Positions 5,406 to 30,634 of a DNA stretch of 32,000 bases are shown piece after piece. The notes beneath the pieces were generated by a model, which had not been told where the DNA came from, did not search any database, and saw nothing but the letters and a program-made list of their open reading frames with translations. Location: contig NC_015931.1 in the NCBI RefSeq assembly GCF_000223395.1, positions 1,530,001 through 1,562,000 on the forward strand, written 5' to 3'. A program made the translations under genes and the position numbers. The stretch comes from Pyrolobus fumarii 1A (lineage in GTDB: Archaea; Thermoproteota; Thermoprotei_A; Sulfolobales; Pyrodictiaceae). Position 1 is the first letter of the stretch, and every line of letters begins with the position of its first letter.

Positions 5406-6113
5406 TCACCACAACGGGCCGAACACTAGACGCTCCCAGGTACCGCGCTTAGCCTCATACTCGTCACGACTAGCCACAATTCTTGCGGGAACGCCCGCCA
5501 CAACAACCCCCGGTGGCACGTCGCGCGCTACTACGGCGCCTGCTGCAACAACAGCCCTCTTTCCAATCCTAACCCCAGGAGTCACTACGGCACCAGCCCC
5601 AACAACAGCGCCCTCCTCAACAACCACACCGATTAGTCTACGGCTTGGCGGGTAACGATCGTTAGTAAAGACAGCACCAGGCCCGATGAAGACATTGTCG
5701 TGTACAACTGTGCCAGGCGGCAGATAGACACCAGACTGTATAGACACCCGCCTACCAACATACACGTGGCTATCCAGGATTACACGCGTACCTATAACAG
5801 ACTCGTCTCGAACAACACAACCCTCCCTAACCACAACATGATGGCCTATCCTGACTCTCCGCCCTATACTCACAGCCTCATAGATAACACTGTGGCTCCC
5901 TACGCGCGACCCAGCACCTATACGAGTACCTACGCCACGCGACCCCCAGTCAATGCCGCCCCGCCATCCAGAGGCAGCCCCCACTACAGCATAATCGCCT
6001 ATGACCACCTCCTCTTCGACGATAGTAGGGCCTAGGATTGCAGCCCCTCGCCCAACGACCACTGACGAGTGTACAACTGCCTCGGGGGATACACGCCCAA
6101 GCCAGGCCGCCAT
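5406..6113 (-). CDS. hexapeptide-repeat (left-handed beta-helix) acyl/acetyltransferase, sugar N-acetyltransferase-like
   Basis: Long series of [LIV]-G-x-x-x-x hexads, for example VRIGHHVVVREGCVVRDESVIGTRVILDSHVYVGRRVSIQSGVYL. FTNDRYPP and a GVPARIV tail are typical of LbH transferases. The start is uncertain: ATG 6113 or GTG 6062, and both overlap the upstream gene end. Confidence 0.8.
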   Translation of the reverse strand: MAAWLGRVSPEAVVHSSVVVGRGAAILGPTIVEEEVVIGDYAVVGAASGWRGGIDWGSRGVGTRIGAGSRVGSHSVIYEAVSIGRRVRIGHHVVVREGCVVRDESVIGTRVILDSHVYVGRRVSIQSGVYLPPGTVVHDNVFIGPGAVFTNDRYPPSRRLIGVVVEEGAVVGAGAVVTPGVRIGKRAVVAAGAVVARDVPPGVVVAGVPARIVASRDEYEAKRGTWERLVFGPLW

Positions 6114-6703
6114 ACCCTCCCGGGCCTCGCTCCAACCTCCCTCGAGGCTAGTAAAACGGCCTTAGCTAGAGCCTCCTCGCGGCTCCTCGCATGCTCCCAC
6201 ACACCGCCAGTCCAGCTGACAAACCTCGATATCCACTCCACGTCAGCCGCTATGAGATCAGCTCTCGACACCGTCAGGAAGTCGATAACAACCCCTATGC
6301 TCCTCGCGAAGAACGCTATAGGTTCTGGTGGAGGCCCTAGTCTAAACCCACCGCTAGTGAATACTAGTGTGCGAGTAGCGTAGCCCGGTGGCGCCGAGAG
6401 GAGCAGATAACAAGCCTCTCTAATCGCCTCGGAGAGCGCAACCCCCCTCTCAGCAATACTCAAAGAGTTCAACGCGCTCCTAACGAGGCTATAATCGCGA
6501 GTGAAGTATAGCAAAGGTACGGGCCTCCTATAAAACGCTAGTAGAGCAACCCAGCCGCCGCGTTCCAGCAGTTTGCGGGCAGCTGTTGCAGCGGCTTCCC
6601 TTAGAACCTCAAACCTGGACGGCTTAACATCATCGCTAGACGTTAACGCGTTGACATCAATAGCTATTACGGCATAAACGCCCAAGCTTCTCAAGCTGCT
6701 CAC
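6032..6703 (-). CDS. vWA-fold protein with degenerate MIDAS motif
   Basis: The pattern matches the von Willebrand A layout: VYAVIAIDVNALTS replaces DxSxS, then SRFEVLREAAATAARKLL, WVALLAFYRRP, ERGVALSEAIREA, RTLVFTSGG (TDG-like), IGVVIDFLTV and WTGGVWEHA. The GTG start overlaps the upstream stop (GTGA). Confidence 0.55.
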   Translation of the reverse strand: MSSLRSLGVYAVIAIDVNALTSSDDVKPSRFEVLREAAATAARKLLERGGWVALLAFYRRPVPLLYFTRDYSLVRSALNSLSIAERGVALSEAIREACYLLLSAPPGYATRTLVFTSGGFRLGPPPEPIAFFARSIGVVIDFLTVSRADLIAADVEWISRFVSWTGGVWEHARSREEALAKAVLLASREVGARPGRVWRPGLGVYPPRQLYTRQWSLGEGLQS

Positions 6704-7386
6704 CCCATCCTTGGAACCGGGAATGGTAGAAGCTCGAACCTAGGCCTCCATACACTCTCGTCAACCAAGCGTAGCAATGCATAGCAACACACGACTCTCT
6801 TCACGCCAGCACCTCCAGAACGAGCCCCAAGCCTAGGATCACACGCAGCAAGAATACCATGTTTCGCGGCAAGAGCGAGCACAGCAGCCTCCTCTAGCGT
6901 GACACCAAGCTTCCTGACCAGGCTCCTAACACCAGCGATCCGCTCAAACCTAACATCTAGATGCACGCCTATCAGAGCCTCGACACGTCGGACAATAGGT
7001 TCAAGCTCCACTGGCAAAACCAACCGGCTAGACAAGTGCTCAAGCACGCCAAGCCTCCCAAGAACCTCGACGCCAATAGGATCGATTACATAGAGGCTAG
7101 TAGGTGGTGGTGCAGGAGCCTCACGGCAGCCAATCTCAGGTGCCACGCCGGACGCTAGCATAAATGATAGAAACTCTTCGAAACCAACACCGGATATGCG
7201 GAGCGCACGCCATAATGTCGAGCCCCGTTGATAAGCCCGAAGACCAACGAGTCTCATATCAATAGTTTCAAGCAGCCTTCTAAGCGCGTCGCGTACAACC
7301 TCAGCTTTTGACGAATAGATGCCGCTTTCAACCAGCGCATCCATAATTTCGTCGAAGTACTCTCCCACTTCGACACACGTGGGCAT
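6700..7386 (-). CDS. fusion protein: ribbon-helix-helix (CopG-like) + UPF0175-like antitoxin segment + PIN-like (DUF3368-type) domain
   Basis: RHH signature is VEVGEYFDEIMDALVESGIYSSKAEVVRDALRRLL. The UPF0175-like stretch is LRAYQRGSTLWRALRISGVGFEEFLSFMLASGV. The PIN-like stretch is LYVIDPIGVEVLGRLGVLEHL...LEEAAVLALAAKHGILAACDPRL...GVKRVV. I place the start at Met13 of the listed ORF because its ATG overlaps the upstream TAA (TAATG at 7384-7388). Confidence 0.6.
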   Translation of the reverse strand: MPTCVEVGEYFDEIMDALVESGIYSSKAEVVRDALRRLLETIDMRLVGLRAYQRGSTLWRALRISGVGFEEFLSFMLASGVAPEIGCREAPAPPPTSLYVIDPIGVEVLGRLGVLEHLSSRLVLPVELEPIVRRVEALIGVHLDVRFERIAGVRSLVRKLGVTLEEAAVLALAAKHGILAACDPRLGARSGGAGVKRVVCCYALLRLVDESVWRPRFELLPFPVPRMG

Positions 7387-7898
7387 TACGCGACACCCAG
7401 GAACCTCTCTACCTCCTCCCAAGAACTAGTCACAAGATCAAACCCGTGCCGTTGAAGCGTACGGGCTACACGCTCAGAGTAGCCAGCAACGCAATAGAAG
7501 ACACGTTTTCTAAACACGGTAGGCATGACGAACCATTTTGAACAAGGCCCCCTGCAGCAACCAACAACTACAAGCACAGACCCACCATACAACAACCTCA
7601 ACGTATCAACGATAGCCTGATCCCAGCAGCCTCTCCCACCGACAATACCGAGATACTCGACAGACTCACTGCATGTGGCACTGGACCCAAGACACAATGG
7701 AATCAAGCCACCAGACCACCATATGCCGACCAGAACAACTCCTAACGTTGAACTCGTTAGTCTGGTAACGGCCTCCTTGCCAGCCTCGAACCTACCGCCA
7801 CGCTCCATACAACTGCCACCATCTATCAGGATAACAACGTGCTCCAATGTTGACACCCTGGAATCCCCTGGGGGATTCAGAGGCAGGTAGTACACCAT
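7386..7898 (-). CDS. small vWA-like protein with degenerate MIDAS motif
   Basis: HVVILIDGGSCME sits at the position of DxSxS. The alternating beta/alpha pattern is VVLVGIWWSGG, GGRGCWDQAIVDTLRLL, SVLVVVGCC, RVFYCVAGYSERVARTLQRHGFDLV. Weak, motif-level call only. Confidence 0.45.
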   Translation of the reverse strand: MVYYLPLNPPGDSRVSTLEHVVILIDGGSCMERGGRFEAGKEAVTRLTSSTLGVVLVGIWWSGGLIPLCLGSSATCSESVEYLGIVGGRGCWDQAIVDTLRLLYGGSVLVVVGCCRGPCSKWFVMPTVFRKRVFYCVAGYSERVARTLQRHGFDLVTSSWEEVERFLGVA

Positions 7899-7959
7899 AG
7901 AAAAGAGTCTTAACCGCGGCTATGCCGCCATCCAACACAGCCAAGTGAGGTCGGGGTGC

Positions 7960-10900
7960 ATGTCAGCCATGAGTAGGTTCACCCTAGTCACTCTAGCTCT
8001 AGCCCTAGTAGCCCTCGTAGCACTAGCTCCAGCGATCGCAGCTGCCCAGCCATACAAGTTCACGAGGCCACTAACAGTAGTAGTCTGGAAAGGCTCGCTG
8101 ATAGAAGTATACTTGAACTACACCGAGCTAGCAGACCAGTACGGCCTAGGCCCGAAGGGCTACCAGTTCGCACTAGGCATCCCAGGTACCGCTCAGCCAC
8201 TAACTGATCAGCCACTACCAATACTCATTAGCGACCCAGCTGGTACGACATTCTGTACTGTTGGCTACATAATCATTGACATCGGTTCAACGAACATAAA
8301 CTACGCGCTATGGATGACAAGCAGCCTAAACTACACGTTCACGGCGGACATCGGTACTGGCGTACGCGCGACCTACATGCTATTCAGGAGCCCAGCGGAG
8401 AACGACTATCTCGTACACCTATACAACGTCACTGGTAACAGCGAGGTAGGCACACTCAACATATACGCCAAGGTGTACTTCCCGGACAAGGGTAGCCTTG
8501 AGGCTGCTATAAAGGCGGCGAACGATGGCACCGTGCCACCAGCGTGTCAAGATCTGATTGACAGGTGGTGTGCTAACGGCTGCTGGTTACCAGTTTACGG
8601 CGTGATAGTGCCAGAAGATCTGCCGCTAACCCCGGGCAACAGGTATTCACTACTGATCAAGACTACTGCGAGCACCACCTGGGCCTTTGAGGGCGGACTC
8701 TATGTCCAGGCTATGGAGCCAAACGAGATACTAGTCAAGTTTGATGCGGGTACCAGCAACGTACTAGCATTTGGCAGGAAGACTCCACAGAAGATAACCC
8801 TAGCTGACGGTAGCAACATCTATGCGGTTGGCGCTCTCAACGTCACAATCAACTGGACTGTGCTTAGGAGCGCGATTGAGAACAGCCTCTCTGAGAACCT
8901 AGGCGTCAGGAACGTAAGCGCGGTGGTACGTGTAGTATATAGGCCGTCTATCTACAGCCTGGGCCAGATACTAGCCGAGAGCGGTATCGTGACGTACAGC
9001 AGCACGAGTATGAACTATACAGCTGCAGGCTCCCTACTTACGAATGCTTCGGCCGGTAGCTTACCAGCTAGGATACTTGGCGGCGAGTTCGGCACATTCA
9101 ACAAGAGCAACGTCGGTGCAATCATATTCAACCTAACAGTCAACCCAGACGCAACTCTACCAATCGTCAACAAGATGCTAGCACTCAAGTACAGTGTTGG
9201 TGGAATGACGATAATGTTGCCAGCAGCCGAGGGTAGCGTCGACATCGTGGTAAGAGTAAACGAGACAGTGTGCGTTGGTGGTTGCGTAACATTCGACGTG
9301 GTAGGGATAAGCGGAGCGACTGAAGCTGTGCCATTCTGGGCGATAGCAGCCTATATACCGCTAGGATACAAGATAACCATACTGCCGAGTGCAATCTACG
9401 CTGACGACATGAGACTAGACACGCCAGACGATCTAGTTAACGGCTTTAACGCGTCACTGTACGGTGATAGAGATGCACTAAACGTCTATGACGAGCTGCG
9501 TGTAGTTCTAGTGAACTTCATCAGCGACATGACGAAATTCTACCTACCAGCAGGTACCTACACGATACTAGGTGCTGGCACGCCAAACATTGATAGGAAC
9601 GTGACAGCGCTCGAGGCACTACTAATCAAATGGGCTACTGGCGACGTCGTTGGCAGTACGTATGTGAACGAGACGGAGGGTTACATAGCTGCTGGTAACA
9701 AGCTGGCTTACAACAGGATACTAGTCATCTATAATGTCAAGCCAGCACCGTACGCTGGCGCCTACTACTACCTACTGCCAGTCTTCAAGCTGAACCTAAC
9801 GGATGCTGAGGGCCAGATAACAACCGAGGTGATAGCGACACTACCGCCAATAAACGTCACTAACGTCGATAACGTCGCTAGCGGCGATGTCAAGATGGTT
9901 AGTGGTAACACCGTCTTCAGGATAAGACCAGTACTATTCGCGTGGCCTGTTGACGTCATAAGTGGTAGTAGGCTAACATCCGACACTAGCACAGTTGCGA
10001 CACTAGGCACCTACATAATGGTCTATGGCGTCGGCTTCGACCTTGATGACGCCGCACTGAAGCTATTCGTCGGTAACGTCTCGATACCATTCAGCCAGCT
10101 GCGCAAGATACTAGGCTATCAGCTACTACGCGCGGACTTCATCGACGTAGTGGTGGTTAACAAGGAGACCGGCACCTTCGGTGTACTAGTACCGCTATGG
10201 AGGCTCTACGAGCAAGGCTACGATGTACTGGCAGGAGCAAAGACAGGCTACATAACAATCAACGTGACCGGCACCGGCGCCAACAGCGATGTGGCGGGCG
10301 GCCATGGCAACCTAGGCGTATACACCGGTGCAGCCTATGACGCCGCAGCAAGGTACGAGATCGTCGAGCCAGCAGAGCCTCTAGTACTGCTCGAGCCGAG
10401 AGCGTATATCAACCTAACCGGCTCAACCGCGACGATAGCAGGTAACGTGACACTAACCGTAGCGACACCTGACGTAAACGTGCTAGCCTACCTACAGGAC
10501 GGCACCATCTACCGCAACAAGACCGCGGGTGCTGCCTACGAGAAGCTGGTAAGCCTATACCCACCGGCAGACAACAATGCAATGTACTACAACTTCACCC
10601 ACCTAATGGCCGTGGTAATAACCAAGCCAGCGACTGCCGATACGACCTACGCGCTAGTACTCGCCAGCGGTACCACGCCGGTCGCGTTCGCGATCAACAT
10701 GACTGTCAGCGACCTAGCTAGCGGCATCTACGTTGCGAGGGGCATACCGGTGCCGACGGTAAAGAAGGGCACTTACATACTAGCATTCTACAACGAGAGC
10801 GCTACGACGCCAGTGACTGGCACTGGCGCCAGGATAAGGATGGTGCCATCCGTGGTCTTCCACAGCGTCGAGATGGGCGTTGCCGACATGAGCACTGTCG

Positions 10901-12429
10901 CGTGGTGGACTAGCGGCATCTACGCGCCAAGCCTAGACGCGCTGCCAAACGGCACGATAATGATGTACGGTTACAGCTGGGACACCGGCTACGCAATCAA
11001 GCTATACGTCGACCAGACCCAGAAGATGACCATCGAGACTGCACAGATCGATGAGACCGGCTCGTGGACGGCCAGCTATACGGTGCCAGCCACCGCGGCG
11101 GGCTCCACGCTGACACTAGAGCTAGACCAGAACGGTCAGAAGGCTGGCGCCTACGTGAGAGTCATAGAGATCAAGAGGAACGCGCTAGTCGCGAAGGTGA
11201 GCAGCGGCCCAGTGGTCTACGAAGATGGCACCGTGAAGATACCAGTGGTGGTCACTGTAACCTACTATGACGTGCCGGTGGCGTGCAACGCCGACGTCAA
11301 GATAAGCGTGAAGGCATACTATGACGTCAAGAAGCACCTAGCCTACAGCCTAGACCTGACACCAGCCGACTGTGTAGAGCCTGGCGTATGGATGGGCGTC
11401 ATTGAGATACCAGTAATCCAGGCACCAACCTACCTAGTGATCGTTGCTAAGGTTGAGTACACGCTAATGGGCGTTGCAAAGCTGACACAGTTCGCAGAGG
11501 CTGGCGTAACGATCGACCCAGAGCTAAAGGCAATGGTGGCGACCGCCGCTGAGAAGGCCGACACAGCTGCTATGGCGGCCGAGGAGGTCAAGACCCTAGT
11601 AGAGACGCTCAACACCAAGGTCGACAGTATAGCTACAACTGTCGAGGGCATCGACACCAAGCTAGCCAGCATCGCTGCTAAGCTAGACACAATCGGTACA
11701 AGCCTAAGCGACATCGCTGCTAAGCTAGATGACATCAAGACCAGCCTAACGAGCGCTGTAGCCGAGATAACCACCAAGCTAGACAAGATCAGCGGTGACC
11801 TCGAGAGCGTCAAGGCCACACTAGCTGGCATCACCAGTGAGGTGAGCACGGCAGTCAAGGAGGCGCTAGCTGGCGTGGCAACCGTCGACGATGTGAAGAG
11901 CATCGTCGAGAGCGCCAAGAACGCAATACTAGACAAGCTAGCTGCCAGCACCAGCGATGTCAAGGCTGCTGTGGCTGCTGCCAAGAGCGAGCTAGCTAGG
12001 AAGATAGACGAGAGCACTGCGGCAGTAACAAGCGCGGTCGACGCGGCCGTCAACAAGATACTAGGTAAGGTTGACGAGGTGGCGGCAGCCATCACCGACC
12101 TAAAGAACAGCATGGCAACCAAGAGTGATGTGGAGGCTGTGAAGACAGCTGTTGACCAGCTAAGCAGCAAGCTAGACGAGGTCAAGGGCGCGATCACTGC
12201 AAGCGTAGAGGACGTGAAGAAGGCGGTCAACAGCCTAGCCGCCAAGCTAGGCGACGTAAAGGCCGGTGTTGACAGCCTCAAGACCGAGATAAGCAACGTC
12301 AAGAACAGCGTTGACAGCGTTGGCACCAACACGATGATCTTCGGCGCTGCCAGCCTAGTGATAAGCATAATCGTACTAGCTCTACTAATACTCGTGGCTG
12401 TTAAGGGAGGACTACTAGCATCCCACTAA
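7960..12429 (+). CDS. S-layer glycoprotein, tetrabrachion-like (signal peptide, large N-glycosylated ectodomain, long C-terminal coiled-coil stalk, C-terminal TM anchor)
   Basis: Signal peptide is FTLVTLALALVALVALAPAIAAAQP. I see more than twenty N-x-S/T sequons by eye (NYT, NVT, NLT, NET, NKT...). About 300 aa of Ala/Ser/Lys/Asp heptad-type repeats run from roughly 11520 to 12300. The protein ends in the hydrophobic anchor MIFGAASLVISIIVLALLILVAV. The ORF is open from GTG 7945; ATG 7960 or 7969 is the more likely start. Confidence 0.8.
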   Translation: MSAMSRFTLVTLALALVALVALAPAIAAAQPYKFTRPLTVVVWKGSLIEVYLNYTELADQYGLGPKGYQFALGIPGTAQPLTDQPLPILISDPAGTTFCTVGYIIIDIGSTNINYALWMTSSLNYTFTADIGTGVRATYMLFRSPAENDYLVHLYNVTGNSEVGTLNIYAKVYFPDKGSLEAAIKAANDGTVPPACQDLIDRWCANGCWLPVYGVIVPEDLPLTPGNRYSLLIKTTASTTWAFEGGLYVQAMEPNEILVKFDAGTSNVLAFGRKTPQKITLADGSNIYAVGALNVTINWTVLRSAIENSLSENLGVRNVSAVVRVVYRPSIYSLGQILAESGIVTYSSTSMNYTAAGSLLTNASAGSLPARILGGEFGTFNKSNVGAIIFNLTVNPDATLPIVNKMLALKYSVGGMTIMLPAAEGSVDIVVRVNETVCVGGCVTFDVVGISGATEAVPFWAIAAYIPLGYKITILPSAIYADDMRLDTPDDLVNGFNASLYGDRDALNVYDELRVVLVNFISDMTKFYLPAGTYTILGAGTPNIDRNVTALEALLIKWATGDVVGSTYVNETEGYIAAGNKLAYNRILVIYNVKPAPYAGAYYYLLPVFKLNLTDAEGQITTEVIATLPPINVTNVDNVASGDVKMVSGNTVFRIRPVLFAWPVDVISGSRLTSDTSTVATLGTYIMVYGVGFDLDDAALKLFVGNVSIPFSQLRKILGYQLLRADFIDVVVVNKETGTFGVLVPLWRLYEQGYDVLAGAKTGYITINVTGTGANSDVAGGHGNLGVYTGAAYDAAARYEIVEPAEPLVLLEPRAYINLTGSTATIAGNVTLTVATPDVNVLAYLQDGTIYRNKTAGAAYEKLVSLYPPADNNAMYYNFTHLMAVVITKPATADTTYALVLASGTTPVAFAINMTVSDLASGIYVARGIPVPTVKKGTYILAFYNESATTPVTGTGARIRMVPSVVFHSVEMGVADMSTVAWWTSGIYAPSLDALPNGTIMMYGYSWDTGYAIKLYVDQTQKMTIETAQIDETGSWTASYTVPATAAGSTLTLELDQNGQKAGAYVRVIEIKRNALVAKVSSGPVVYEDGTVKIPVVVTVTYYDVPVACNADVKISVKAYYDVKKHLAYSLDLTPADCVEPGVWMGVIEIPVIQAPTYLVIVAKVEYTLMGVAKLTQFAEAGVTIDPELKAMVATAAEKADTAAMAAEEVKTLVETLNTKVDSIATTVEGIDTKLASIAAKLDTIGTSLSDIAAKLDDIKTSLTSAVAEITTKLDKISGDLESVKATLAGITSEVSTAVKEALAGVATVDDVKSIVESAKNAILDKLAASTSDVKAAVAAAKSELARKIDESTAAVTSAVDAAVNKILGKVDEVAAAITDLKNSMATKSDVEAVKTAVDQLSSKLDEVKGAITASVEDVKKAVNSLAAKLGDVKAGVDSLKTEISNVKNSVDSVGTNTMIFGAASLVISIIVLALLILVAVKGGLLASH
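11671..11754 (+). repeat. 42-bp tandem duplication encoding 14-aa (two-heptad) coiled-coil units
   Basis: atcgctgctaagctaga occurs at 11671 and again at 11713, exactly 42 nt apart. The units encode IAAKLDTIGTSLSD and IAAKLDDIKTSLTS, and the following units (AVAEITTKLDKISG, DLESVKATLAGITS) keep the 14-aa period. Confidence 0.8.
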
Positions 12430-12462
12430 GCGTGAAAACGAGTAACACATGACTCCCGATGA

Positions 12463-12484
12463 TTTTCCTGCCCCAAGTTTTTTC
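12463..12484 (+). terminator. oligo-T tract after S-layer gene (archaeal intrinsic terminator candidate)
   Basis: GATTTTCC and then TTTTTT (12478-12483) lie within 55 nt of the TAA stop and are followed by an AT-rich spacer. Confidence 0.4.
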
Positions 12485-12718
12485 ACACAACTTGCGTATC
12501 CTGTATCTTTGTTTCACCTCTCTCATCTGTGTATCTAAGTCGTGTTGTTTTCTCATTCGCCTTCTGTAATTGTAGGGAGTTTCGAGGGGTGATACCCTCA
12601 CGCTCTATACTTTTCATTGTTTGTCGATTTTGTACTGAAAAATGTATGTCTTGTTAAATACTTGCAGGGTACTCTCTCCGCGCCTTTTACTTCAACGTTG
12701 ATAGGATGGGATTGACTG

Positions 12719-13000
12719 ATGCCCGATTTAGTGGTGTTGCTTAACGATATTCTAAGACGTGTTGTGATGCTAGCTTGGGGTGTGTTCCTTCTAACTTGGA
12801 GTATAGGGTGGGCGTTGAGAGGTGCACCAATACCCATAATGCGGTTAAAGAGGAGTGGTCAACACATGATAGAGGATGCAGTATGGGCAGCATTCTGGCT
12901 CTCTATGGGTTCAACGATATTCTGGATTGTATCTGTAGTGGCAAGTAGTGTGGCTGAGACCATTGGCGGACCTAGAGTAAATATTACAGTATTGCGATAG
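12719..13000 (+). CDS. cedA1: small two-TM hairpin membrane protein, VirB2/TrbC-like pilin candidate (CedA1-like)
   Basis: The 93-aa protein has two hydrophobic helices (VVMLAWGVFLLTWSIGWAL and AVWAAFWLSMGSTIFWIVSVVASSV) separated by a basic loop. It is the first gene of a cluster ending in a VirB4-like ATPase. The assignment rests on architecture and gene order, not alignment. Confidence 0.5.
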   Translation: MPDLVVLLNDILRRVVMLAWGVFLLTWSIGWALRGAPIPIMRLKRSGQHMIEDAVWAAFWLSMGSTIFWIVSVVASSVAETIGGPRVNITVLR

Positions 13001-13017
13001 GCGGGGTGTAATTCTCC

Positions 13018-14487
13018 ATGGAGTTTAGTGTATCGAGTGTATTGTCTCTTGCTTACCTGTTATCTGTCATAAACTATTACGTTGGTCTTGTGTTGTACGC
13101 GATGCCTGCTCCGATTGCCGTGAAGAGGTTTGGGCTTAGAATGTCATATCATGGTGCTATTGCGGCTCTCCTAGTAATGTTGTACGGTAGTCTAGTCTAT
13201 GTCGTAGAGCTGACATTTAAAACACTGGGGTTAAGCTGGGAGTCACTCTCTAGTTTCTATACGAGATCTAGCTTGCTAGCCTCCGGCTTCTACTCGATGG
13301 CTGCATTGTTAGCGTCCTTCCGCAGTCATATACTTGGTATAGTTCCCGATGCGATGCGTAACCTAGTGTCTATCATACTAAACACGGCTTATCGGAACTT
13401 GATGCGGGCATCAATATTGATAGGTACTAGCGAGGCTATGGTAAAGCTTGTTGCTAGCTTGGCTTATCATTACTGGGATAAGCTCGTGCTATTGGGAGTA
13501 CTGTTATACTCTCTGCCTGCTGGTGTTGGGCGCAAGGCTGGGGCTAGTCTCATAGCAAGCGGCATAGTATTGTACATTGCAGTTCCGTTGCTCCCGCTTT
13601 GGGTCAATATGTGGCTAGATTCAGTTGCGAAGTCCAATCCTATAGCGGCTCTCGTGGGTGGATTGGGTTATGCGAAACCCACGCTCTACATGCTATGGGG
13701 TAATGTGGTTGATCATAGTGGTCTAGGGCAGGGGTATACTATTGCCCTGTGGAGGGGTGGCGTACCGCTAGTAGCTAGGAGCGGGTACGCATCATATATT
13801 GTTACTTACCCCTTGGAGCCCGGCACGTACCTGCTTCAGGTATATGCGGGTCCAATTGTTGTAAAGAGTAGGGTAGTGTCAATCCCGGATGAGTGTCTGG
13901 AAAGTGAGTCGCCGTTTACCGATTTGTTAACTGTTATACAGCTTCTTGTGAATAACTTGTTGTATGGTAGAGTTGTGCAGTGTAAATACGATGTGATGCT
14001 CGAGAATGTGTTGATGCTCGGTGAGCACATTCTCGTAGAGTGGCCATCTACAGTACAAGTGTTGAGCTACGACTACAATCAGAGCGACGATGGCGTTTTT
14101 GTCAACATTAGTTTCGAGGGTAGTGGTGTTGTAAAAGTATGCGCGTGTTGCGGTTGTAGTGTGGATAGTTTATCAGGTATTATTGTAGAGAAGGAGGAGC
14201 AAGAAGACGGTGTTAGCTGCAGCTATTATCGCGTCGAAGACAGTACAGTGATAGCCATAACTGCGAGAGAATGTGGTGCTACTTTCTCCTCTGTGGCGCC
14301 ACAAGGTGGTATACAGTATCCGCTCTTGGATTTCTTGCTGCACGATATTCCGATGGCAGTTTACATGCTGGCAATGGGTTATGCGGCAGGCGTATGGAGC
14401 TATCTGATGCTTCTATCCCTGCTCATATATGGGTTTGGAAGAGTGCTTGGTGAAAGCGGGGTGCTAGTCATACGTATACGATACTAG
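13018..14487 (+). CDS. cedA: polytopic membrane protein (about 6 N-terminal TM + about 200-aa non-membrane domain + C-terminal TM), CedA/VirB6-like candidate
   Basis: Hydrophobic segments lie at roughly aa 5-28, 45-65, 85-105, 130-170, 175-200 and 440-480. The middle region contains a prealbumin/CarboxypepD_reg-like stretch (YPLEPGTYLLQVYAGPIVVKSRVV) and a Cys cluster, VKVCACCGCS. It sits between two small membrane ORFs. Confidence 0.55.
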   Translation: MEFSVSSVLSLAYLLSVINYYVGLVLYAMPAPIAVKRFGLRMSYHGAIAALLVMLYGSLVYVVELTFKTLGLSWESLSSFYTRSSLLASGFYSMAALLASFRSHILGIVPDAMRNLVSIILNTAYRNLMRASILIGTSEAMVKLVASLAYHYWDKLVLLGVLLYSLPAGVGRKAGASLIASGIVLYIAVPLLPLWVNMWLDSVAKSNPIAALVGGLGYAKPTLYMLWGNVVDHSGLGQGYTIALWRGGVPLVARSGYASYIVTYPLEPGTYLLQVYAGPIVVKSRVVSIPDECLESESPFTDLLTVIQLLVNNLLYGRVVQCKYDVMLENVLMLGEHILVEWPSTVQVLSYDYNQSDDGVFVNISFEGSGVVKVCACCGCSVDSLSGIIVEKEEQEDGVSCSYYRVEDSTVIAITARECGATFSSVAPQGGIQYPLLDFLLHDIPMAVYMLAMGYAAGVWSYLMLLSLLIYGFGRVLGESGVLVIRIRY

Positions 14488-14495
14488 GGACGAGT

Positions 14496-14663
14496 ATGAC
14501 GCTAGAAATTAGTGCAAGAGATAAACGCCTTCAAATAGCTTTCTTGCTGATGACGCTACCTCTGGTTATCATGGGGGATACGATCCTACGTTTACTCTCC
14601 ATTATCGCGCTATCATCGGGTCTAGTAGCATTTGTGCTTGTAGAGAGGGTTGAGGAGAGTTGA
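14496..14663 (+). CDS. cedA2: unlisted 55-aa two-segment membrane ORF (CedA2-like candidate)
   Basis: My hand translation from ATG 14496 gives MTLEISARDKRLQIAFLLMTLPLVIMGDTILRLLSIIALSSGLVAFVLVERVEES, ending at TGA 14661-14663. The stop overlaps the TTG start (14660) of the ATPase gene as TTGA. The ORF is below the 60-aa cutoff of the ORF track. Confidence 0.45.
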   Translation: MTLEISARDKRLQIAFLLMTLPLVIMGDTILRLLSIIALSSGLVAFVLVERVEES

Positions 14664-16252
14664 TCGATCCTGCGCTTGTGTTTCTCCTTGTAGGTGTTGC
14701 TTCTGCCGTGGTGCAAGCTGCTCGCAGTGTTTGGGGTGGAAGGAGTACTGCGAAGCTAGCTGCTCTGTCGGGATTGAAGGTAAACCATGAATATATAAAG
14801 CTAGGTGATAAGTGCTATACTGTCGTCCTCGTAGAGGACTTGGTGTGTGTCTTTGAAGCTGGTGAGTTATTCGCAAAAAGCTTGGAGTTGATAATTTCAT
14901 CTCAGGAGGTCGCAGGTGTTATTGTTGCTAAGCATAGTGTTGACAGAAGCTCAGCTCTCGCAAACCTAGAGAATAGTATTATGTCTTTGCGTGTAGTCCT
15001 TGAGCGAGAGCCTGGTAACAAGAACGTTGAGAGAAAGCTGCGTATACTCGAGAGGATGTACGAGAGTATAATGACTGGTTATCAGCCGGTTAAAGCCGTG
15101 ATTGGAATCGTTGTTAGGGGTGAATGTAGAAGAAGTCTATACAGAGAAGCTGAGCGCATAGCCAGGGAGATAACAAAGCTCGGATGCAAAGCTAAGGTTA
15201 TGACGGGCCAAGAAGCGCTCAAGGCACTCTTGCTGCCATTATCTTATAGCGGCTCTAGAAAAATTACAACAAGCAGGCAAGTTGTTACAAGCTTGTATGG
15301 TGCGTTGTCTAACACGCTAAGTAGTACACGTGAAGGCATCTACCTTGGTAGAAGGAATGATGGTGTTGCTTTTCTTCTTCCGCTCTGGTCGTCTAGCGGT
15401 AGCTTGCATTATGTGATTGTAGGGCCTACTGGTAGAGGTAAGACAACCTTAGAGGCAATCCTGGCGGTGCGCGCAGACGCAATGGGTATCAACGTGTACA
15501 GCGTCGACCCAAAGGGTGACCTTGCAAATTACTTGTCAGGGTTCCTCAGGATCGTGAAACTGACCATACGTGAAGTGTTTGAAAGCATGTTATGGTTGTA
15601 TCGTGAGGGTGTCATAGACAAGCGTGTGGTTAGCGAGGCGCTTGCAGAGCTAAACTTGGATACCATTATTGACGCTGCTATAACAGCTGCAGAGGAATGT
15701 AAACCGCTTTACCGCCTTGTTGATGGCCACTTGTTATCAAGATTAAAGAGGCTAGGTTTGAGCAACGTGACATGCCGAAGGCCATCATGGGTAAGCTCGG
15801 GGGTAGTGTATGATGTCAGCGGTCTACCAGAGGCGCTCAAGAGTATCGGCGCTATTGTAGTTTCCCTATCAGCTCTTTCTAGACGAAGTAGAGGGCTACT
15901 TCTCATTGACGAGGCGTGGCGTATTGGAAAACTTGCCTCGTTGCACGTTATACGCCTGTACAAAGAGGCGAGGAGCGCTGGACTAAGTATAGTGTCGGCT
16001 ACACAGGATCCAGACGACCTTCCACAAGAGATATACAACAATTCGTATGGTGTGATACTCTTCGGGTCTAACGACGAGGAGTATATCACCAGGGTTGTTA
16101 AGAGATTGGGGCTTAGTAGTGAGGATGGGCGCAAGTTGCGCATGCTAGGTGTTGGCGAGGTTCTCGTGAGGCTTGCTGGATCTAGACCAGAGCTGGTAGA
16201 GATTGATGCGAGTGAAATCCTTGGAATGAAGGGGTTAAAGGCTGGCAGTTAG
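14660..16252 (+). CDS. cedB: VirB4/TrbE-like (HerA-FtsK superfamily) conjugation-type ATPase with N-terminal TM helix, CedB-like
   Basis: N-terminal hydrophobic helix is ALVFLLVGVASAVVQAA. Walker A is VIVGPTGRGKTTL. Walker B is LLLIDEAWRIGK, the DEAW form typical of VirB4. VSATQDPDDL follows. TTG start coupled to the upstream small ORF. Confidence 0.8.
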   Translation: MIDPALVFLLVGVASAVVQAARSVWGGRSTAKLAALSGLKVNHEYIKLGDKCYTVVLVEDLVCVFEAGELFAKSLELIISSQEVAGVIVAKHSVDRSSALANLENSIMSLRVVLEREPGNKNVERKLRILERMYESIMTGYQPVKAVIGIVVRGECRRSLYREAERIAREITKLGCKAKVMTGQEALKALLLPLSYSGSRKITTSRQVVTSLYGALSNTLSSTREGIYLGRRNDGVAFLLPLWSSSGSLHYVIVGPTGRGKTTLEAILAVRADAMGINVYSVDPKGDLANYLSGFLRIVKLTIREVFESMLWLYREGVIDKRVVSEALAELNLDTIIDAAITAAEECKPLYRLVDGHLLSRLKRLGLSNVTCRRPSWVSSGVVYDVSGLPEALKSIGAIVVSLSALSRRSRGLLLIDEAWRIGKLASLHVIRLYKEARSAGLSIVSATQDPDDLPQEIYNNSYGVILFGSNDEEYITRVVKRLGLSSEDGRKLRMLGVGEVLVRLAGSRPELVEIDASEILGMKGLKAGS

Positions 16253-16275: not shown

Positions 16276-16992
16276 GTGGGTAAACGAATACTCGTCCAGA
16301 GGATGGGTAGAGGCAGTCCAACGTTCCGCAGTAAACCATGGATACACCCAGCGCCAGCCAAGTACCCGCCGCCAGCGCCAGTGACACTACGCGGGCGTGT
16401 CGTCGAGCTAGTTCATGATCCGGGTAGGTGGTGCCCGCTAGCAAAGATAGTGCTGGAGAACGGTGTCGAGTTCTACACTGTAGCTGCAGAGGGTATGTAC
16501 GTCGGTCAAGTGATCAAGATAGGACCAGATGCCGAGCCCGTCAACGGCAACATACTGCCTCTTGGTAAGATCCCAGAGGGTACACAGATATTCAATATCG
16601 AGATACGCCCAGGTGACGGTGGTAAGCTAGCGCGTGCACCAGGCTCCTATGCAATCGTAGTGGGTAGGACTGGTAACAAGACAATAGTCCAGCTCCCGAG
16701 TGGTAAGGTCAAGGAGCTTCCGAATGATGCTCGCGCTACTATAGGTATACCGGCTGGCGGCGGAAGGCTCGAGAAGCCACTACTCAAGGCTGGGAATGCT
16801 TACCACAAGTGGAAGGTCAAGGCCCACAAGTGGCCACGCGTGCGCGGTGTAGCCATGAACGCTGTAAGCCACCCACATGGCGGTGGCAGCCACCAGAGTC
16901 CAAGCTTCCCAACGACCGTTGCAAGAGAGGCGCCACCAGGCCAGAAAGTCGGTCACATCGCTGCCAGGCAGACTGGCCGCAAGAAGAGGTAG
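16276..16992 (+). CDS. rpl2: 50S ribosomal protein uL2 (L2P)
   Basis: MGKRILVQRMGRGSPTFRS, PGDGGKLARAPGSYA, IPAGGGRLEKPLLKAGNAYHKWK and VRGVAMNAVSHPHGGG are classic uL2 signatures. GTG start 23 nt after the cedB-like stop. Confidence 0.95.
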   Translation: MGKRILVQRMGRGSPTFRSKPWIHPAPAKYPPPAPVTLRGRVVELVHDPGRWCPLAKIVLENGVEFYTVAAEGMYVGQVIKIGPDAEPVNGNILPLGKIPEGTQIFNIEIRPGDGGKLARAPGSYAIVVGRTGNKTIVQLPSGKVKELPNDARATIGIPAGGGRLEKPLLKAGNAYHKWKVKAHKWPRVRGVAMNAVSHPHGGGSHQSPSFPTTVAREAPPGQKVGHIAARQTGRKKR

Positions 16993-17037
16993 CGCTAAAA
17001 CCCCTATACCCTATGCATCTCGTGAGACAAGAGTACG

Positions 17038-17045
17038 GGTGGTGA
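17038..17045 (+). promoter_or_regulatory. Shine-Dalgarno-like GGTGGTGA upstream of rps19
   Basis: GGTGGTGA lies 4 nt before ATG 17050. The identical octamer precedes rpl3. Confidence 0.5.
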
Positions 17046-17049
17046 GCAC

Positions 17050-17496
17050 ATGTCTGCTGAGATAAAGAAGTGGCTTGAGATGTTGCCACCCGAGTGGAGG
17101 AAGTTCAGGTACCGCGGCTACACGCTTGAAGAGCTACTCCAGATGAGCATGGATGAGTTCGTGAAACTGCTACCCGCTAGGCAGAGACGTAGCCTACTAC
17201 GCGGCTTCACAGAAGCTCAGCGTATACTACTAAGGAAGATCAAGAAGGCTAGACAGAAGATGCTGAAGGGCGAGAAGGTAGTGATAAAGACTCACGTACG
17301 GGACATGATAATACTGCCGGAGATGGTCGGGTTGACTATAGCCGTCTATAACGGCAAGGAGTTTGTACCAGTTAAGATAACGCCAGAGATGATAGGTCAC
17401 TATCTAGGAGAGTTCTCGCCAACGTGCAAGATCGTCAAGCACGGCGAGCCAGGCCTCAAAGCCACAAAGAGCACGCTGCACGTCGCACTCAAGTAA
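17050..17496 (+). CDS. rps19: 30S ribosomal protein uS19 (S19P)
   Basis: [62 protein letters not shown] and KHGEPG are typical of archaeal S19. Confidence 0.95.
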
Positions 17497-19221: not shown

Positions 19222-21198
19222 CTAGATACCTGAGAGACGCGAGAGAAACCTTGGTATATCCTCTGGCCGGGCGACAACCCTGACTGTAGCATACTCGGAC
19301 ACAGCCCTGCGCTCGTTACTACAGTGGCGCGGCGGTAGTATGAAGAGAAGGTGCCACCCCTCTCGAGCTAATCTAGCCGCGGTTTCTGATGGTCTCTCGT
19401 CTTCAACTGTCTGGCACAAGTCAGTGACTATAACCATCTTCGAGGGTGTTGTGTAGACTCGTGCTGTTTCGCGGAGGGCTACTGAAATGTTAGTATAGCC
19501 TTCGAATGATACGCGGAAGAGTAACTCTATAATCCTGCGGCGCGAAAGCTTCCAGGCATTCTGAACTATTTCTACGTCACTTGAGAAGAGCGTAAGGGTA
19601 TACACGAGACCCGAGAAACTGGAAGCCGCAAGAAGCGCCCATAGAGTGTACTTGGCCATGCTGCCACTAGTATCGAGAACGAGCGCTATACTAGGCTTCT
19701 TTCTACGCTTCCTGGCGACAATAGGATTCTCTCTCAGCGCGACCAGGTTATACACTGTCCGTCTAACATCTACCCGGCCTCTCTGCGAGATTATGGTTTC
19801 ACTGCTCCTCTTCGCATGTTTAGCTGCACGTGCTTCCATCCTACGCCATACTATCTCGGCAAGCCTCAGGGCGGTGCGCTTAAGATGATCGTCGCCGCTT
19901 CTGTAAACCTCCCGGAGATAGAGAAGAGCCTCATCCGGTTGCATGCGCTTTACGATAGAATAAAGACGTATCATCGCATCGCTTACACCCTCAATAACAG
20001 AGCGTAGCTGTTCGACACGCTCCCGGTACCTCTCGATGGCCCTGATAGCCCAATCTGGCGCCTCACTATAGTCTATCTGTTTCACTTTCTCTAACTCGTA
20101 GAGAGCATAGTCTAGTTGTGCTTCATCCCCCCTGGCTGCAGCTAAGAAGCCCTGCTCGGCACGAGCAAGCATACCTGCAATTGCAACAACAGCCTCTTCC
20201 CAGCTTCTAGGCTGCCTTGATATCCTAACTTCGCTCCAAACGCTGAGATCCACCTCGCCTAGGAGCCCCGCTGCAACACCAATACCTCTGCGATCATGCG
20301 AGATCTTGCGGAGTATGGAGCGGAGAGCGTTAGCATCAAGCAGGCGAAGAGCCTCGGCCAGCATGTCGCGTGATTCGCGGCTTCTCAGCAACTCTAGGGC
20401 CAGACGGGGCTCGCTGCGCAACAGACTAGCCAGACTACGTGGAGTCAGCGCATCGAGATTACGGAGCAATTTGTAAGCGCTCCAAGAGTCTCTTGGGGTC
20501 TCGCCCGATTCGAGTCTCTTAGCAACTATACTTGCGAGTTTACGCGCTAGGCCGCGATTACCCTCTTGTAGTGCCTGTAAAGCGGCTAAAGCAATCCTAT
20601 CTATCTCGATACCATCGAGCTTCTCCTCGTCAACCGGCGCAGCATAGAGTGCAAACCATTCGAGTTTACCTCTAGATATCATGCGAGCCGCACTAGCAGC
20701 AAGAGCATCCCATGCCGACCCATACTGACGTAGAAGTGATCGTATTCGTCTAATTGCGGCATCCCGATCAAGTACAACGTCGCCACGCGGTGTACGTACA
20801 ATGAGGCCAAGCAGGCGTAGACGCGAGTATGCCTCTCTACGCTCCTCGGCGTGAGGGCCATTCAAAAGCTTCTTCTTCGAGTATATCCTCGAGCCCCAGC
20901 CTAGACCAAGCCTACGTAGATCGTCCTCCACGGCGGCTATAACGCGAGCTATAGAGTTTTGACTCTGGTTGATCTCCCTCCACACCCGCTCTACAACGGT
21001 CTCCTCCCTATCGTTATGCGCGAAAACTGCACGGATAACATCGTGGAGTATCTCCTTGTCAAGCTCCTTGCCCTCGAGAAGCGCGAGGTTCTCGGCTATA
21101 CGCAGTGCATCTACGATTTCAGATGTTCCGACTTGTAGACCTTCGCGTCTAAGCCTATAGGCAATGCGTATGCATAGACTCACAAGGTCTTCCTTCAA
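19222..21198 (-). CDS. vWA-domain protein (CoxE-like) with large N-terminal helical region, partner of MoxR ATPase
   Basis: The C-terminal domain has an intact MIDAS motif, KKPSIALVLDTSGSMAKY, then GYTNISVAL and MVIVTDL. The N-terminal ~470 aa are Leu/Arg/Ala-rich and helical. The TTG start overlaps the MoxR stop (TTGA). Confidence 0.75.
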   Translation of the reverse strand: MKEDLVSLCIRIAYRLRREGLQVGTSEIVDALRIAENLALLEGKELDKEILHDVIRAVFAHNDREETVVERVWREINQSQNSIARVIAAVEDDLRRLGLGWGSRIYSKKKLLNGPHAEERREAYSRLRLLGLIVRTPRGDVVLDRDAAIRRIRSLLRQYGSAWDALAASAARMISRGKLEWFALYAAPVDEEKLDGIEIDRIALAALQALQEGNRGLARKLASIVAKRLESGETPRDSWSAYKLLRNLDALTPRSLASLLRSEPRLALELLRSRESRDMLAEALRLLDANALRSILRKISHDRRGIGVAAGLLGEVDLSVWSEVRISRQPRSWEEAVVAIAGMLARAEQGFLAAARGDEAQLDYALYELEKVKQIDYSEAPDWAIRAIERYRERVEQLRSVIEGVSDAMIRLYSIVKRMQPDEALLYLREVYRSGDDHLKRTALRLAEIVWRRMEARAAKHAKRSSETIISQRGRVDVRRTVYNLVALRENPIVARKRRKKPSIALVLDTSGSMAKYTLWALLAASSFSGLVYTLTLFSSDVEIVQNAWKLSRRRIIELLFRVSFEGYTNISVALRETARVYTTPSKMVIVTDLCQTVEDERPSETAARLAREGWHLLFILPPRHCSNERRAVSEYATVRVVARPEDIPRFLSRLSGI

Positions 21199-22124
21199 AC
21201 TCCGAAGACCTCCCTTAGAACCTCGTCCACTACCTCCTCTTCCTCAACCCTCTTGTATAGAGTTACCGTTGCAGCCTCAATAACGTCCCTAACGTCAACT
21301 GTATCGCTTCCACGCAGTTCTGCAAGCCTCGCCGCCACTCTAGCCCATGTGACAGTATCGGCAGGACCCGGTTTATACGAGGCTCTCTTTCTCAACTCGT
21401 TAACAACGGCTATCATAGAACGAAGCAGCTCGTCGGGAAGTTTAGCCCTTGAATCGAGCCTTATGCGTACGATCTCTGCTTCGCGCTCGGGAGGCGGATA
21501 GTCGAAGCGTATCCTTACGACTCTTCTCAGGAAAGCATCGCTAAGTTCGCCCTGCCCGATATCCTCTGGGTTACTAGTGAAGATCACTTGGAATCCTGGG
21601 CCTCTGGCTCTAAACACCTTCCTAAGCTCGGGTACTATTATGCGCCTCTTGTCAATTATGTCAAGAAGCATGTTTTGGAATTCCTCGCTACTCCTTCTAA
21701 TCTCGTCGACAAGGACGCCAGCATCCAGTATTATGGCAGCTAGTAGGGGCCTAGGTATGTAGCTCTCCTCGTTGAAACCATATTTCATGGCCATCAATGG
21801 GTGGAAATCACCGATAACTCGGTACTCGTCATAGTTCTCGCTACAGGGTAACACGAAGGCGGTCTTCCCGGCCCAGAGAGTAAGTATAGCCTCACCAATC
21901 TCAGTCTTGCCGGTGCCGGGTGGCCCCTCAAATAGCACCGGCCTGCCCGCCATAAACGCCGCTAATACCAGTGACACTAGCCTCTTGTCTACTATTAGAC
22001 GGTATTCATCCCTGAGTATGCGTACCATTTCGTCTGGATTACGTACCGGTTTTCGTGTCTCAACCACCTGCCCATAGATCTCATACACTTTCCTCACGAT
22101 GGGGTCATCGGCGTCAACACTCAT
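21195..22124 (-). CDS. MoxR-family AAA+ ATPase
   Basis: Walker A is VLFEGPPGTGKTEIGEAI and Walker B is VLVDEIRRSSEEFQNMLLDIID. VIFTSNPEDIGQGELSDAFLRRV is a MoxR-like sensor/Arg region. Size is 309 aa. Confidence 0.85.
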   Translation of the reverse strand: MSVDADDPIVRKVYEIYGQVVETRKPVRNPDEMVRILRDEYRLIVDKRLVSLVLAAFMAGRPVLFEGPPGTGKTEIGEAILTLWAGKTAFVLPCSENYDEYRVIGDFHPLMAMKYGFNEESYIPRPLLAAIILDAGVLVDEIRRSSEEFQNMLLDIIDKRRIIVPELRKVFRARGPGFQVIFTSNPEDIGQGELSDAFLRRVVRIRFDYPPPEREAEIVRIRLDSRAKLPDELLRSMIAVVNELRKRASYKPGPADTVTWARVAARLAELRGSDTVDVRDVIEAATVTLYKRVEEEEVVDEVLREVFGV

Positions 22125-29189: not shown

Positions 29190-29228
29190 GGTGAGCGCGG
29201 GATGCTAGGTACGACCATGTTCCTCCTC

Positions 29229-30020: not shown

Positions 30021-30280
30021 GGGACCCGCGCGAGATAATCATAAGGCCTCTTCAGACTGAGAAAGCGCTAAGACTCATCGAGCAGCAGAACACGCTAACA
30101 TTCATAGTGAGGCGTGACGCGACAAAACCAGAGATAAAGAGAGCAGTAGAGGAGCTATTCGGCGTCAAAGTAGTCAAGGTGAACACGCTGATAACGCCAA
30201 GGGGCGAGAAGAAGGCATACGTAAAACTGGCTCCCGAGTACAAGGCCACCGAGATAGCCGCCAGGCTAGGCATACTCTAA
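30017..30280 (+). CDS. rpl23: 50S ribosomal protein uL23 (L23P)
   Basis: [51 protein letters not shown] is the uL23 signature. The ATGA overlap links it to the rpl4 stop. Confidence 0.95.
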
Positions 30281-30590: not shown

Positions 30591-30596
30591 TTATAA
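30591..30596 (+). promoter_or_regulatory. TATA box TTATAA upstream of rpl22
   Basis: TTATAA lies 39-44 nt upstream of the TTG start at 30635, inside the 354-bp gap that replaces rpl2-rps19. Confidence 0.35.
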
Positions 30597-30634
30597 GGGC
30601 TTGGTATGTTCGCGCGTCTCGGGTGCGGTAGGGT

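Follow-up and report, generated by a model that had tools for sequence, protein, structure and literature searches.

A probable chromosomal Ced operon in Pyrolobus fumarii, with a long-form CedA and a damage-response-like promoter element

The ced cluster and its products

The stretch of DNA analysed here, referred to as the window, covers 32,000 nucleotides of Pyrolobus fumarii 1A (NC_015931.1, positions 1,530,001 to 1,562,000, forward strand), and all coordinates below are positions within it. Between 12657 and 16252 it holds what is very probably a chromosomal operon of the crenarchaeal exchange of DNA (Ced) system, a reading whose probability we put at about 0.86. The cluster consists of four co-oriented open reading frames (ORFs) on the + strand, with lengths of 93, 489, 55 and 530 amino acids in the ORF listing of the window:

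12719..13000, + strand: cedA1 (Pyrfu_1644), 93 amino acids, Ced pilin, two-helix hairpin
13018..14487, + strand: cedA (Pyrfu_1645), 489 amino acids, long-form polytopic membrane protein
14496..14663, + strand: small ORF (Pyrfu_1646), 55 amino acids, two hydrophobic segments, in the CedA2 position
14660..16252, + strand: cedB (Pyrfu_1647), 530 amino acids, membrane-anchored ATPase of the FtsK-HerA superfamily

Exact copies of all four proteins are found in public collections as Pyrfu_1644 to Pyrfu_1647 of P. fumarii 1A. The genes cedA1 and cedA are separated by 17 nucleotides and cedA and the small ORF by 8, while the small ORF and cedB overlap by 4. Coordinates, lengths and spacing thus agree with the original prediction, made from the DNA alone, of four co-oriented and tightly packed genes. 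All four ORF positions are conserved at the protein level in the syntenic loci of relatives (40-84% identity), so they are not chance ORFs. The Ced-like order small-large-small-ATPase, also proposed at that time, is borne out by matches to the NCBIfam models of CedA1, CedA and CedB and by conservation of the order cedA1-cedA-(small ORF)-cedB in about 45 loci of Desulfurococcales, Pyrodictiaceae and Acidilobaceae.

The system is not a fresh find at this place. RefSeq names the 93-residue product (WP_014027177) "DNA import protein CedA1" and lists the other three as hypothetical, and a 2025 paper reports CedA1 in all Pyrodictiaceae (PMC12518558). The Ced system is thus a known kind, its presence in Pyrodictiaceae and in the genome of P. 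fumarii is already recorded, and this copy is partly annotated. As a Ced machine in P. fumarii was implied by the literature and by RefSeq, the locus by itself adds little beyond confirming that the upper-temperature record holder keeps this domesticated, conjugation-like machine; the comparative by-products described below are more useful.

CedA1 scores 120.3 bits against NCBIfam model NF041797, above the cutoff of 100. Hydropathy reveals two hydrophobic helices, and the protein matches the Ced pilin of Aeropyrum pernix determined by cryo-electron microscopy (PDB ID 8DFU) from end to end, residues 3-82 aligning on 3-82 with ~48% identity and an E-value of 2.3e-23. Both observations confirm the two-helix hairpin pilin that had been recognized in the sequence. 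The CedA1 pilin family is structurally VirB2-like (PMC9905601).

The ATPase is assigned as CedB because of a direct family match, a membrane anchor and an invariable linkage to cedA1-cedA. It matches NCBIfam NF041017 with an E-value of 2.3e-35, the next families (VirB4_plasma, CedD, TraC and TraD) following at ~1e-4 or weaker, and the VirB4 model TIGR00929 is matched weakly (0.012). In Pfam, AAA_10 is above its cutoff and HerA_C just above. Hydropathy identifies one N-terminal hydrophobic helix (residues 1-25). The membrane-anchored ATPase with GPTGRGKT and IDEAW motifs described from the sequence is thereby confirmed, and both motifs proved invariant in 17 homologues:

15422..15445, + strand: Walker A GPTGRGKT, CedB residues 255-262, invariant in 17 homologues
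15905..15919, + strand: Walker B IDEAW, CedB residues 416-420, with D417, E418, A419, W420 and R421 invariant in 17 homologues

The AlphaFold2 (AF2) model of CedB (pLDDT 81.8) retrieves R388 TrwK/VirB4 at ranks 1-9 of a Foldseek search of the PDB (E-values of 2e-19 to 3e-15, query TM-score (TMq) ~0.4), followed by Sulfolobus solfataricus HerA (PDB ID 4d2i, 4e-15). At the sequence level the order is reversed: the CedB family profile finds HerA-like chains among solved structures at 6e-15 to 9e-13 and VirB4 (PDB ID 4ag5) at 1e-3. This profile ranking, together with the HerA_C match, would fit a HerA-type repair helicase or translocase next to unrelated membrane proteins. Such a reading is very improbable given that the NCBIfam CedB match stands ~30 orders of magnitude above any other family, that the protein carries an N-terminal membrane helix, that its gene is invariably linked to, and often overlaps, the cedA1-cedA unit, and that its best fold matches are VirB4; moreover, no NurA, Mre11 or Rad50 gene is found in the 32-kb window. 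Indeed, the literature itself places CedB, like CedD, among HerA-clade ATPases whose N-terminal domains are VirB4-like. The original prediction had set HerA against VirB4/CedB as exclusive outcomes. The VirB4 part stood at the level of fold, whereas the sequence is nearer to HerA, and the dichotomy itself is a false one, as CedB belongs to the HerA clade.

To note, a longer CedB of 613-628 amino acids characterizes one clade of Desulfurococcales metagenome-assembled genomes (MAGs; loci L005, L007, L009, L010, L012, L034 and L037 of our set). In a Pyrodictiaceae MAG (locus L040, 7388-8684), cedB seems split into ORFs of 160 and 291 amino acids after a 609-nucleotide gap following cedA; either the gene is a pseudogene or the split stems from an error of assembly or a frameshift error.

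CedA is polytopic by hydropathy. Its residues 3-198 match the NCBIfam CedA model NF041796 with an E-value of 3.2e-22, the paralogue CedE scoring lower (7e-15), and the CedA proteins of relatives carry a precomputed PF27251 match. The homology of its N-terminal hairpin with CedA1, already reported, is reproduced by hhalign (P of 1e-4). The AF2 model (pLDDT 73.6) begins with five long helices, followed by a β-rich region (residues ~223-417) and a C-terminal helix at 433-476. The β-rich region is the distinctive part of the protein:

13684..14268, + strand: β-rich insert of CedA, residues ~223-417, all-β subdomains in the AF2 model, block pLDDT mostly 69-90

Alignment with the short, Sulfolobales-type CedA identifies this region as a clean insertion between a conserved "LYxxPxRxGRxxGASLIA" helix and the shared last helix, the long and short forms having their N- and C-terminal helices in common. 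An exhaustive HMMER search among 1.84 billion proteins returned 179 CedA representatives with E-values of at most 1e-3; in the best 150 of the 179, ~100 are 450-499 amino acids long and ~27 are 200-299. A word-indexed profile search with the CedA alignment matched only nine close relatives. Since CedA measures 450-530 amino acids in all related loci examined, the β-insert is the norm outside Sulfolobales and not a peculiarity of Pyrolobus. The insert is probably extracellular, or at least outward-facing: the adjacent helices have positively charged residues next to their cytoplasmic ends (positive-inside rule), the soluble segment 206-435 contains eight cysteines, several of them conserved in the clade, two sequons lie within the insert (N354 and N363), and the domain is β-sandwich-like. 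Foldseek with full-length CedA provides weak matches to transthyretin, carboxypeptidase-regulatory and carbohydrate-binding-module-like sandwiches (TMq of at most 0.17). The commonest form of CedA is therefore the long one with a β-rich, predicted extracellular insert. As far as could be checked, this form with its outward β-domain appears new, although the 2016 Ced paper may cover the length of CedA.

The 55-residue ORF occupies the place of CedA2. An ORF of 48-66 amino acids with two hydrophobic segments fills the gap between cedA and cedB in 29 of 37 loci, and it is missing only in Acidilobaceae-type loci, where cedA and cedB abut. All members share the same architecture: a charged N-terminus, a helix, a polar turn, a second helix and a charged tail. 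The small ORF is thus a real, positionally conserved gene in the CedA2 position. Its family alignment contains no conserved residue, and comparisons of the family gave no Pfam match (VirB3 included), no similarity to the CedA1 profile (hhalign P of 0.37) and none to the CedA N-terminus. The small membrane ORF is therefore equivalent to CedA2 by position and architecture only. The more specific proposals of a pilin paralogue or a VirB3 homologue are unsupported by Pfam, hhalign or residue evidence, the analogy with VirB3 being positional only.

A DDRE-like element upstream of cedA1

Two features precede the first gene:

12657..12676, + strand: element AATACTTGCAGGGTACTCTC, resembling the DNA-damage-responsive element (DDRE), at -62 to -43 from the cedA1 ATG
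12685..12690, + strand: tentative TATA-like box TTTTAC, recognized by eye only

In Saccharolobus (Sulfolobus) islandicus, DNA-damage-responsive promoters share a 20-bp consensus, AATAGTTTCRGWDTACTCWS (ANTTTC / AATAGTTTCRG…; PMC6061795). The consensus includes the hexamer ANTTTC, which is bound by Orc1-2 and has been validated on the cedA1 promoter, among others (PMC6061795). In Sulfolobus acidocaldarius, the hexamer occupies positions -44 to -39 relative to the transcription start, directly upstream of the TFB recognition element (BRE) and TATA box, and its dinucleotide substitutions leave 28-55% of promoter activity. Orc1-2 has been inferred for the crenarchaeal ancestor, while its role outside Sulfolobales was posed as an open question (PMC6061795).

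The P. fumarii block was first spotted as the single semi-conserved stretch in aligned cedA1 upstream regions of close relatives. It agrees with the consensus, which is that of S. islandicus and not of the host, at 18 of 20 positions (two mismatches), and it is the sole match in the window at up to three mismatches, with 0.08 expected by chance. The 11-mer, with at most one mismatch, has three matches in the window against 1.85 expected, only the cedA1 site being promoter-positioned.

Other lineages display A(A/G)TA(C/G)TTTC(G/A) at homologous positions upstream of cedA1. The comparison was extended to the upstream regions of 38 cedA1 genes, for which 250 further intergenic regions upstream of genes in the same loci served as controls. 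At least 14 matches to 19 consensus positions are found in 21 of the 38 cedA1 regions and in 8 of the 250 controls, and the shorter pattern TA[CG]TTTC[AG] in 15 of 38 against none of 250; across related loci the matches cluster at -50 to -70. Unseeded k-mer enrichment, in which the loci are not independent samples, ranks AGTTTC (p of 3e-7) and ACTTTC (p of 2e-6) as top hexamers and TAGTTTC (p of 1e-7) as top heptamer. Shared ancestry alone is an unlikely cause of the motif, because the flanks are unalignable between clades. Most related loci have an A/T-rich, TATA-like box ~13-17 nucleotides after the element. In the MAG clade with the longer CedB, the element is located further upstream (about -88) and is directly preceded by TATAAA.

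The presence of the element and its conservation are plain, and its resemblance to the DDRE suggests that ced may be regulated in response to DNA damage in P. fumarii. A literature search found no paper tying the motif to Desulfurococcales, Aeropyrum or Pyrodictiaceae; a conserved DDRE-like element outside Sulfolobales seems unreported, as far as the literature could be checked. Its recurrence in distant lineages offers a testable handle on Orc1-2-type damage regulation outside Sulfolobales.

Genomic context and mobility

The window contains, besides ced, genes for an Lhr-type helicase, a phosphoadenosine phosphosulfate (PAPS)-reductase-like protein, an acetyltransferase, a candidate S-layer protein, uL2, uS19, a methyltransferase, TtuA, a VWA/MoxR pair, isoleucyl-tRNA synthetase (IleRS), uL3, uL4, uL23, uL22 and uS3. 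Three MAG relatives with 40-49% identity in CedA and CedB keep this entire neighbour order. Examination of related Desulfurococcales, suggested with the original prediction, established that cluster and housekeeping neighbours are syntenic in about 45 loci, the shared backbone being Lhr(+) / PAPS-reductase-like(-) / ced / ribosomal-protein operon. A single gene stands between cedB and uL3-uL4-uL23-uL2-uS19-uL22-uS3 in Desulfurococcaceae-type loci, whereas uL2 directly follows cedB in Pyrodictiaceae and Acidilobaceae-type loci, P. fumarii among them:

16276..17496, + strand: uL2 and uS19, starting 23 nucleotides after cedB (uS19 by NCBIfam, uL2 in the Pyrfu_1648 region)

An ancient linkage of ced to the ribosomal-protein operon emerges from these loci. 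It appears new as far as could be checked, although the 2016 Ced paper may cover gene order, and the fixed position of ced beside this operon argues strongly that its domestication is ancient.

T4SS-like parts (T4SS, type IV secretion system), here a VirB2-like pilin and an ATPase of VirB4-like fold, could also belong to an integrated conjugative plasmid or element exporting its own DNA, or to its remnant. The base composition might be taken in the same sense, the GC content dipping to 0.47-0.48 at the ced cluster (12001-16000) between flanks of 0.53-0.57, against 54.9% genome-wide. Such an origin is, in our estimate, hardly credible. The cluster lies between housekeeping flanks whose order is kept across three families, in relatives of only 40-49% identity; no tRNA is found in the 32-kb window, nor any integrase, relaxase, replication or VirD4-like gene among its real-looking ORFs of at least 100 amino acids, embedded and antisense ORFs left aside; and a tblastn search with CedB against the 72,556 plasmids of PLSDB gave no match. 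From the housekeeping synteny across families, the lack of integrase, tRNA and relaxase genes in the window and the absence of a plasmid match it follows that the cluster is chromosomal, vertically inherited and not on a mobile element. The deep synteny likewise argues against recent transfer as the source of the GC dip, to which membrane-protein composition may contribute.

The original prediction had drawn the same conclusion of a chromosomal apparatus from the lack of relaxase, VirD4-type, integrase and replication genes, and that lack is confirmed over the 32 kb; no plasmid relative of CedB came to light either. The part of the argument that relied on VirD4 falls, however, as it is not diagnostic: Ced itself uses a VirD4-like second ATPase, CedD, which co-occurs with CedB and whose gene in S. 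acidocaldarius lies apart from the rest of ced (PMC11823120). Neither CedD nor CedE is encoded in the 32-kb window.

The gene directly upstream of cedA1 deserves separate consideration:

7945..12429, + strand: candidate S-layer (tetrabrachion-like) glycoprotein, 1494 amino acids, with signal peptide, 25 sequons, coiled coil and membrane anchor

The predicted protein has a signal peptide, 25 N-glycosylation sequons and, in its C-terminal part, a coiled coil of ~265 residues and a membrane anchor, and it may plausibly be a tetrabrachion-like S-layer subunit. P. fumarii possesses a 40-nm quasi-periplasm (PMC3156397), and a p4 tetrameric lattice has been reported; a coiled coil of ~265 residues would span ~40 nm and so match the reported width. 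The candidate has no solved homologue, and its Pfam and NCBIfam matches were discarded as coiled-coil noise. Its adjacency to cedA1 is conserved in the Pyrolobus clade; in some Desulfurococcaceae-type loci, cedA1 is preceded by the gene of a secreted glycoprotein of ~650 amino acids, and this in turn by that of a tetrabrachion-like glycoprotein with an anchor; and many other loci lack the adjacency. The location of ced immediately after an S-layer gene, stressed in the original prediction, is thus true of the Pyrolobus clade, with the S-layer identity read from sequence features, but it is not general, the linkage to ribosomal-protein genes being wider.

Further observations concern this neighbourhood. 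Secreted proteins of 608-696 amino acids, with a signal peptide and 13-20 sequons, end 34-65 nucleotides upstream of cedA1 in several Desulfurococcales loci (L002 4041-5867, L015 3859-5895, L023 3911-5899, L047 3825-5915 and L041 3715-5649) and follow a tetrabrachion-like anchored glycoprotein in four of the five (not in L041). They could be co-transcribed with ced; the window of P. fumarii has no equivalent. An antisense ORF of 312 amino acids (11430-12368, - strand) within the coiled-coil region is of low complexity (S, T, A, L); almost certainly it does not encode a protein but arises from the repeats of the sense strand.

Upstream of ced, the Lhr-type DEXH helicase gene (428-3262, + strand) and the divergent PAPS-reductase/ferredoxin-like gene (3271-5328, - strand) form a pair that belongs to the backbone of many Desulfurococcales loci (L004, L008, L014, L019, L026, L028 and L030, for example), and a repair-type helicase thus recurs in the vicinity of ced. 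Between the PAPS-reductase-like gene and the S-layer candidate, a block of four genes on the - strand (5406-7898) encodes a hexapeptide acetyltransferase, a VWA-domain protein, a 240-residue protein with a ParD/RHH-like N-terminus and a 170-residue protein of unknown function; it is kept in Pyrolobus-clade relatives. Downstream, a MoxR-like AAA ATPase (21195-22124) and a 658-residue VWA_CoxE/DUF5682 protein (19222-21198) constitute a pair (19222-22124, - strand) conserved in relatives. The ribosomal order itself is broken in P. fumarii: uL2-uS19 (16276-17496) are separated from uL3-uL4-uL23 and uL22-uS3 (28149-31836) by ~11 kb and are missing between uL23 (~30020-30280) and uL22, while the canonical order is kept in Desulfurococcaceae-type loci.

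Proposed mechanism and comparison with known systems

Taken together, the NCBIfam matches of CedA1, CedA and CedB, the 8DFU pilin, the VirB4-like fold of the ATPase and the chromosomal context support the Ced interpretation of the original prediction. On this basis, a promoter upstream of cedA1 would drive cedA1, cedA, the small ORF and cedB as one tightly coupled unit. CedA1 would leave the membrane and polymerise with lipids into a conjugative-type pilus, as its A. pernix orthologue does, and its lumen, as in the solved structure of that orthologue, could presumably accommodate single-stranded DNA. CedA, polytopic and with an N-terminal hairpin paralogous to the pilin, may be the platform or channel in the membrane, and the last outward loop of the long form would project a β-rich domain of ~200 residues, probably into the 40-nm quasi-periplasm beneath the S-layer. 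The 55-residue hairpin protein, which takes the place of CedA2, may serve as an accessory subunit in the membrane, translationally coupled to CedB, while CedB, membrane-anchored and presumably hexameric, with its VirB4-like fold, would power pilus assembly and/or DNA translocation. Judging from its Sulfolobus orthologues, the machine would import DNA from neighbouring cells for recombinational repair, with the help of further components encoded elsewhere, such as CedD.

Several points weigh against this reading. To our knowledge, A. pernix is the only organism in which Ced pili have been observed, and DNA import has been demonstrated in Sulfolobales alone; for P. fumarii, import is proposed by orthology. 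CedA and CedB score far below the equivalog cutoffs of their NCBIfam models (79 bits against 330 for NF041796, 122 bits against 700 for NF041017), both being divergent orthologues of the Sulfolobales proteins. The CedB family profile is nearer to HerA-like chains than to VirB4, as described above, and the 55-residue ORF has no detectable homology in any of the searches. CedA has no VirB6/TrwI match, either by Foldseek of its model or by a profile search of PDB sequences, the latter returning empty; the comparison of CedA with VirB6 suggested earlier was thus not recovered and relies on the literature, in which HHpred provides the relationship only for the Ted homologue TedA, Pcal_0766 (PMC9905601). 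Finally, the core of the promoter element in P. fumarii is ACTTGC, a T-to-G change placing it one base off ANTTTC, which makes the function of the element in this host uncertain. The low model scores probably account for the "hypothetical" RefSeq labels of Pyrfu_1645 and Pyrfu_1647: the CedA and CedB models are apparently tuned to Sulfolobales. In the relatives examined, these proteins carry no source name.

The direction of transport is a separate matter, and a Ced-type pilus could serve mainly for adhesion or cell–cell contact, for export or for bidirectional exchange in Pyrodictiaceae. Beyond the restriction of demonstrated import to Sulfolobales, the predicted extracellular domain of the long CedA, which the Sulfolobus protein does not have, would be in keeping with such a role. 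CedA1 and CedE of S. islandicus also aid export (bioRxiv 10.1101/2024.09.27.615246), and the A. pernix pili came from the extracellular fraction of cultured cells, no UV treatment being mentioned in the available part of that account (PMC9905601). We nevertheless consider a main role other than import unlikely: CedA1, CedA and CedB are orthologous to the components of the import system, the conserved damage-response-type promoter element fits a link to repair, and neither a relaxase nor export coupling genes are found nearby.

A broader proposal can be made for the import system, and we offer it tentatively, at somewhat less than even odds. The Orc1-2/DDRE circuit would control ced across Desulfurococcales, Pyrodictiaceae and Acidilobaceae as it does in Sulfolobus, and the β-domain of the long-form CedA, predominant outside Sulfolobales, would carry the pilus base over the quasi-periplasm to the S-layer. 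If true, damage-induced DNA import would be an ancient, conserved regulon of these Thermoprotei.

The Ced system of Sulfolobales is the closest reference and is reportedly the subject of van Wolferen 2016. The components are the same (CedA1-CedA-CedA2 and CedB, with CedD and CedE in addition; PMC11823120, bioRxiv 10.1101/2024.09.27.615246), the locus tags saci_0569/0568/0567 suggest the same cedA1-cedA-small gene order, CedB is likewise a membrane-anchored HerA-clade ATPase, and the promoter element of P. fumarii is similar to the DDRE that Orc1-2 binds at cedA1 in S. islandicus. There are also differences. In P. fumarii, cedB forms one contiguous cluster with cedA, but in S. acidocaldarius the two are not linked (saci_0748 versus saci_0567-0569); CedA has 489 amino acids with a ~200-residue β-insert instead of ~260; CedA and CedB fall short of the Sulfolobales-tuned cutoffs; and the small ORF displays no demonstrable homology to Sulfolobales CedA2. 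Ups pili are reported only in Sulfolobales.

The Ced pilus of A. pernix (PDB ID 8DFU; Beltran et al. 2023, PMC9905601) offers the orthologous CedA1, with the same unprocessed N-terminus. Both organisms are placed in Desulfurococcales by the cited papers, and A. pernix has no Ups pili (PMC9905601). P. fumarii belongs to a different family, Pyrodictiaceae, and no filament of it has been observed; the likeness concerns the pilin.

Bacterial conjugative T4SSs, exemplified by R388 TrwL/TrwI/TrwK, resemble the P. fumarii cluster in the ATPase, at the fold level only, the CedB model matching TrwK/VirB4 best (E-value of 2e-19), and in the VirB2-like structure of the pilin family (PMC9905601). No relaxase, VirD4, VirB3, B5 or B7-B11 genes are found near ced in P. 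fumarii, and its cluster is chromosomal and vertically inherited, with DNA transport proposed to be inward. The Ted system of Thermoproteales (TedC/TedA/TedB; PMC9905601) is likewise a domesticated, T4SS-like exchange system composed of a pilin, a channel and an ATPase. Ted and Ced have no recognisable sequence similarity (PMC9905601), the P. fumarii pilin has no cleaved signal peptide, in contrast to Ted, and the P. fumarii proteins match the Ced models directly. The likeness to the HerA-NurA end-resection module stays at the superfamily level, CedB of P. fumarii being membrane-anchored and linked to cedA1-cedA.

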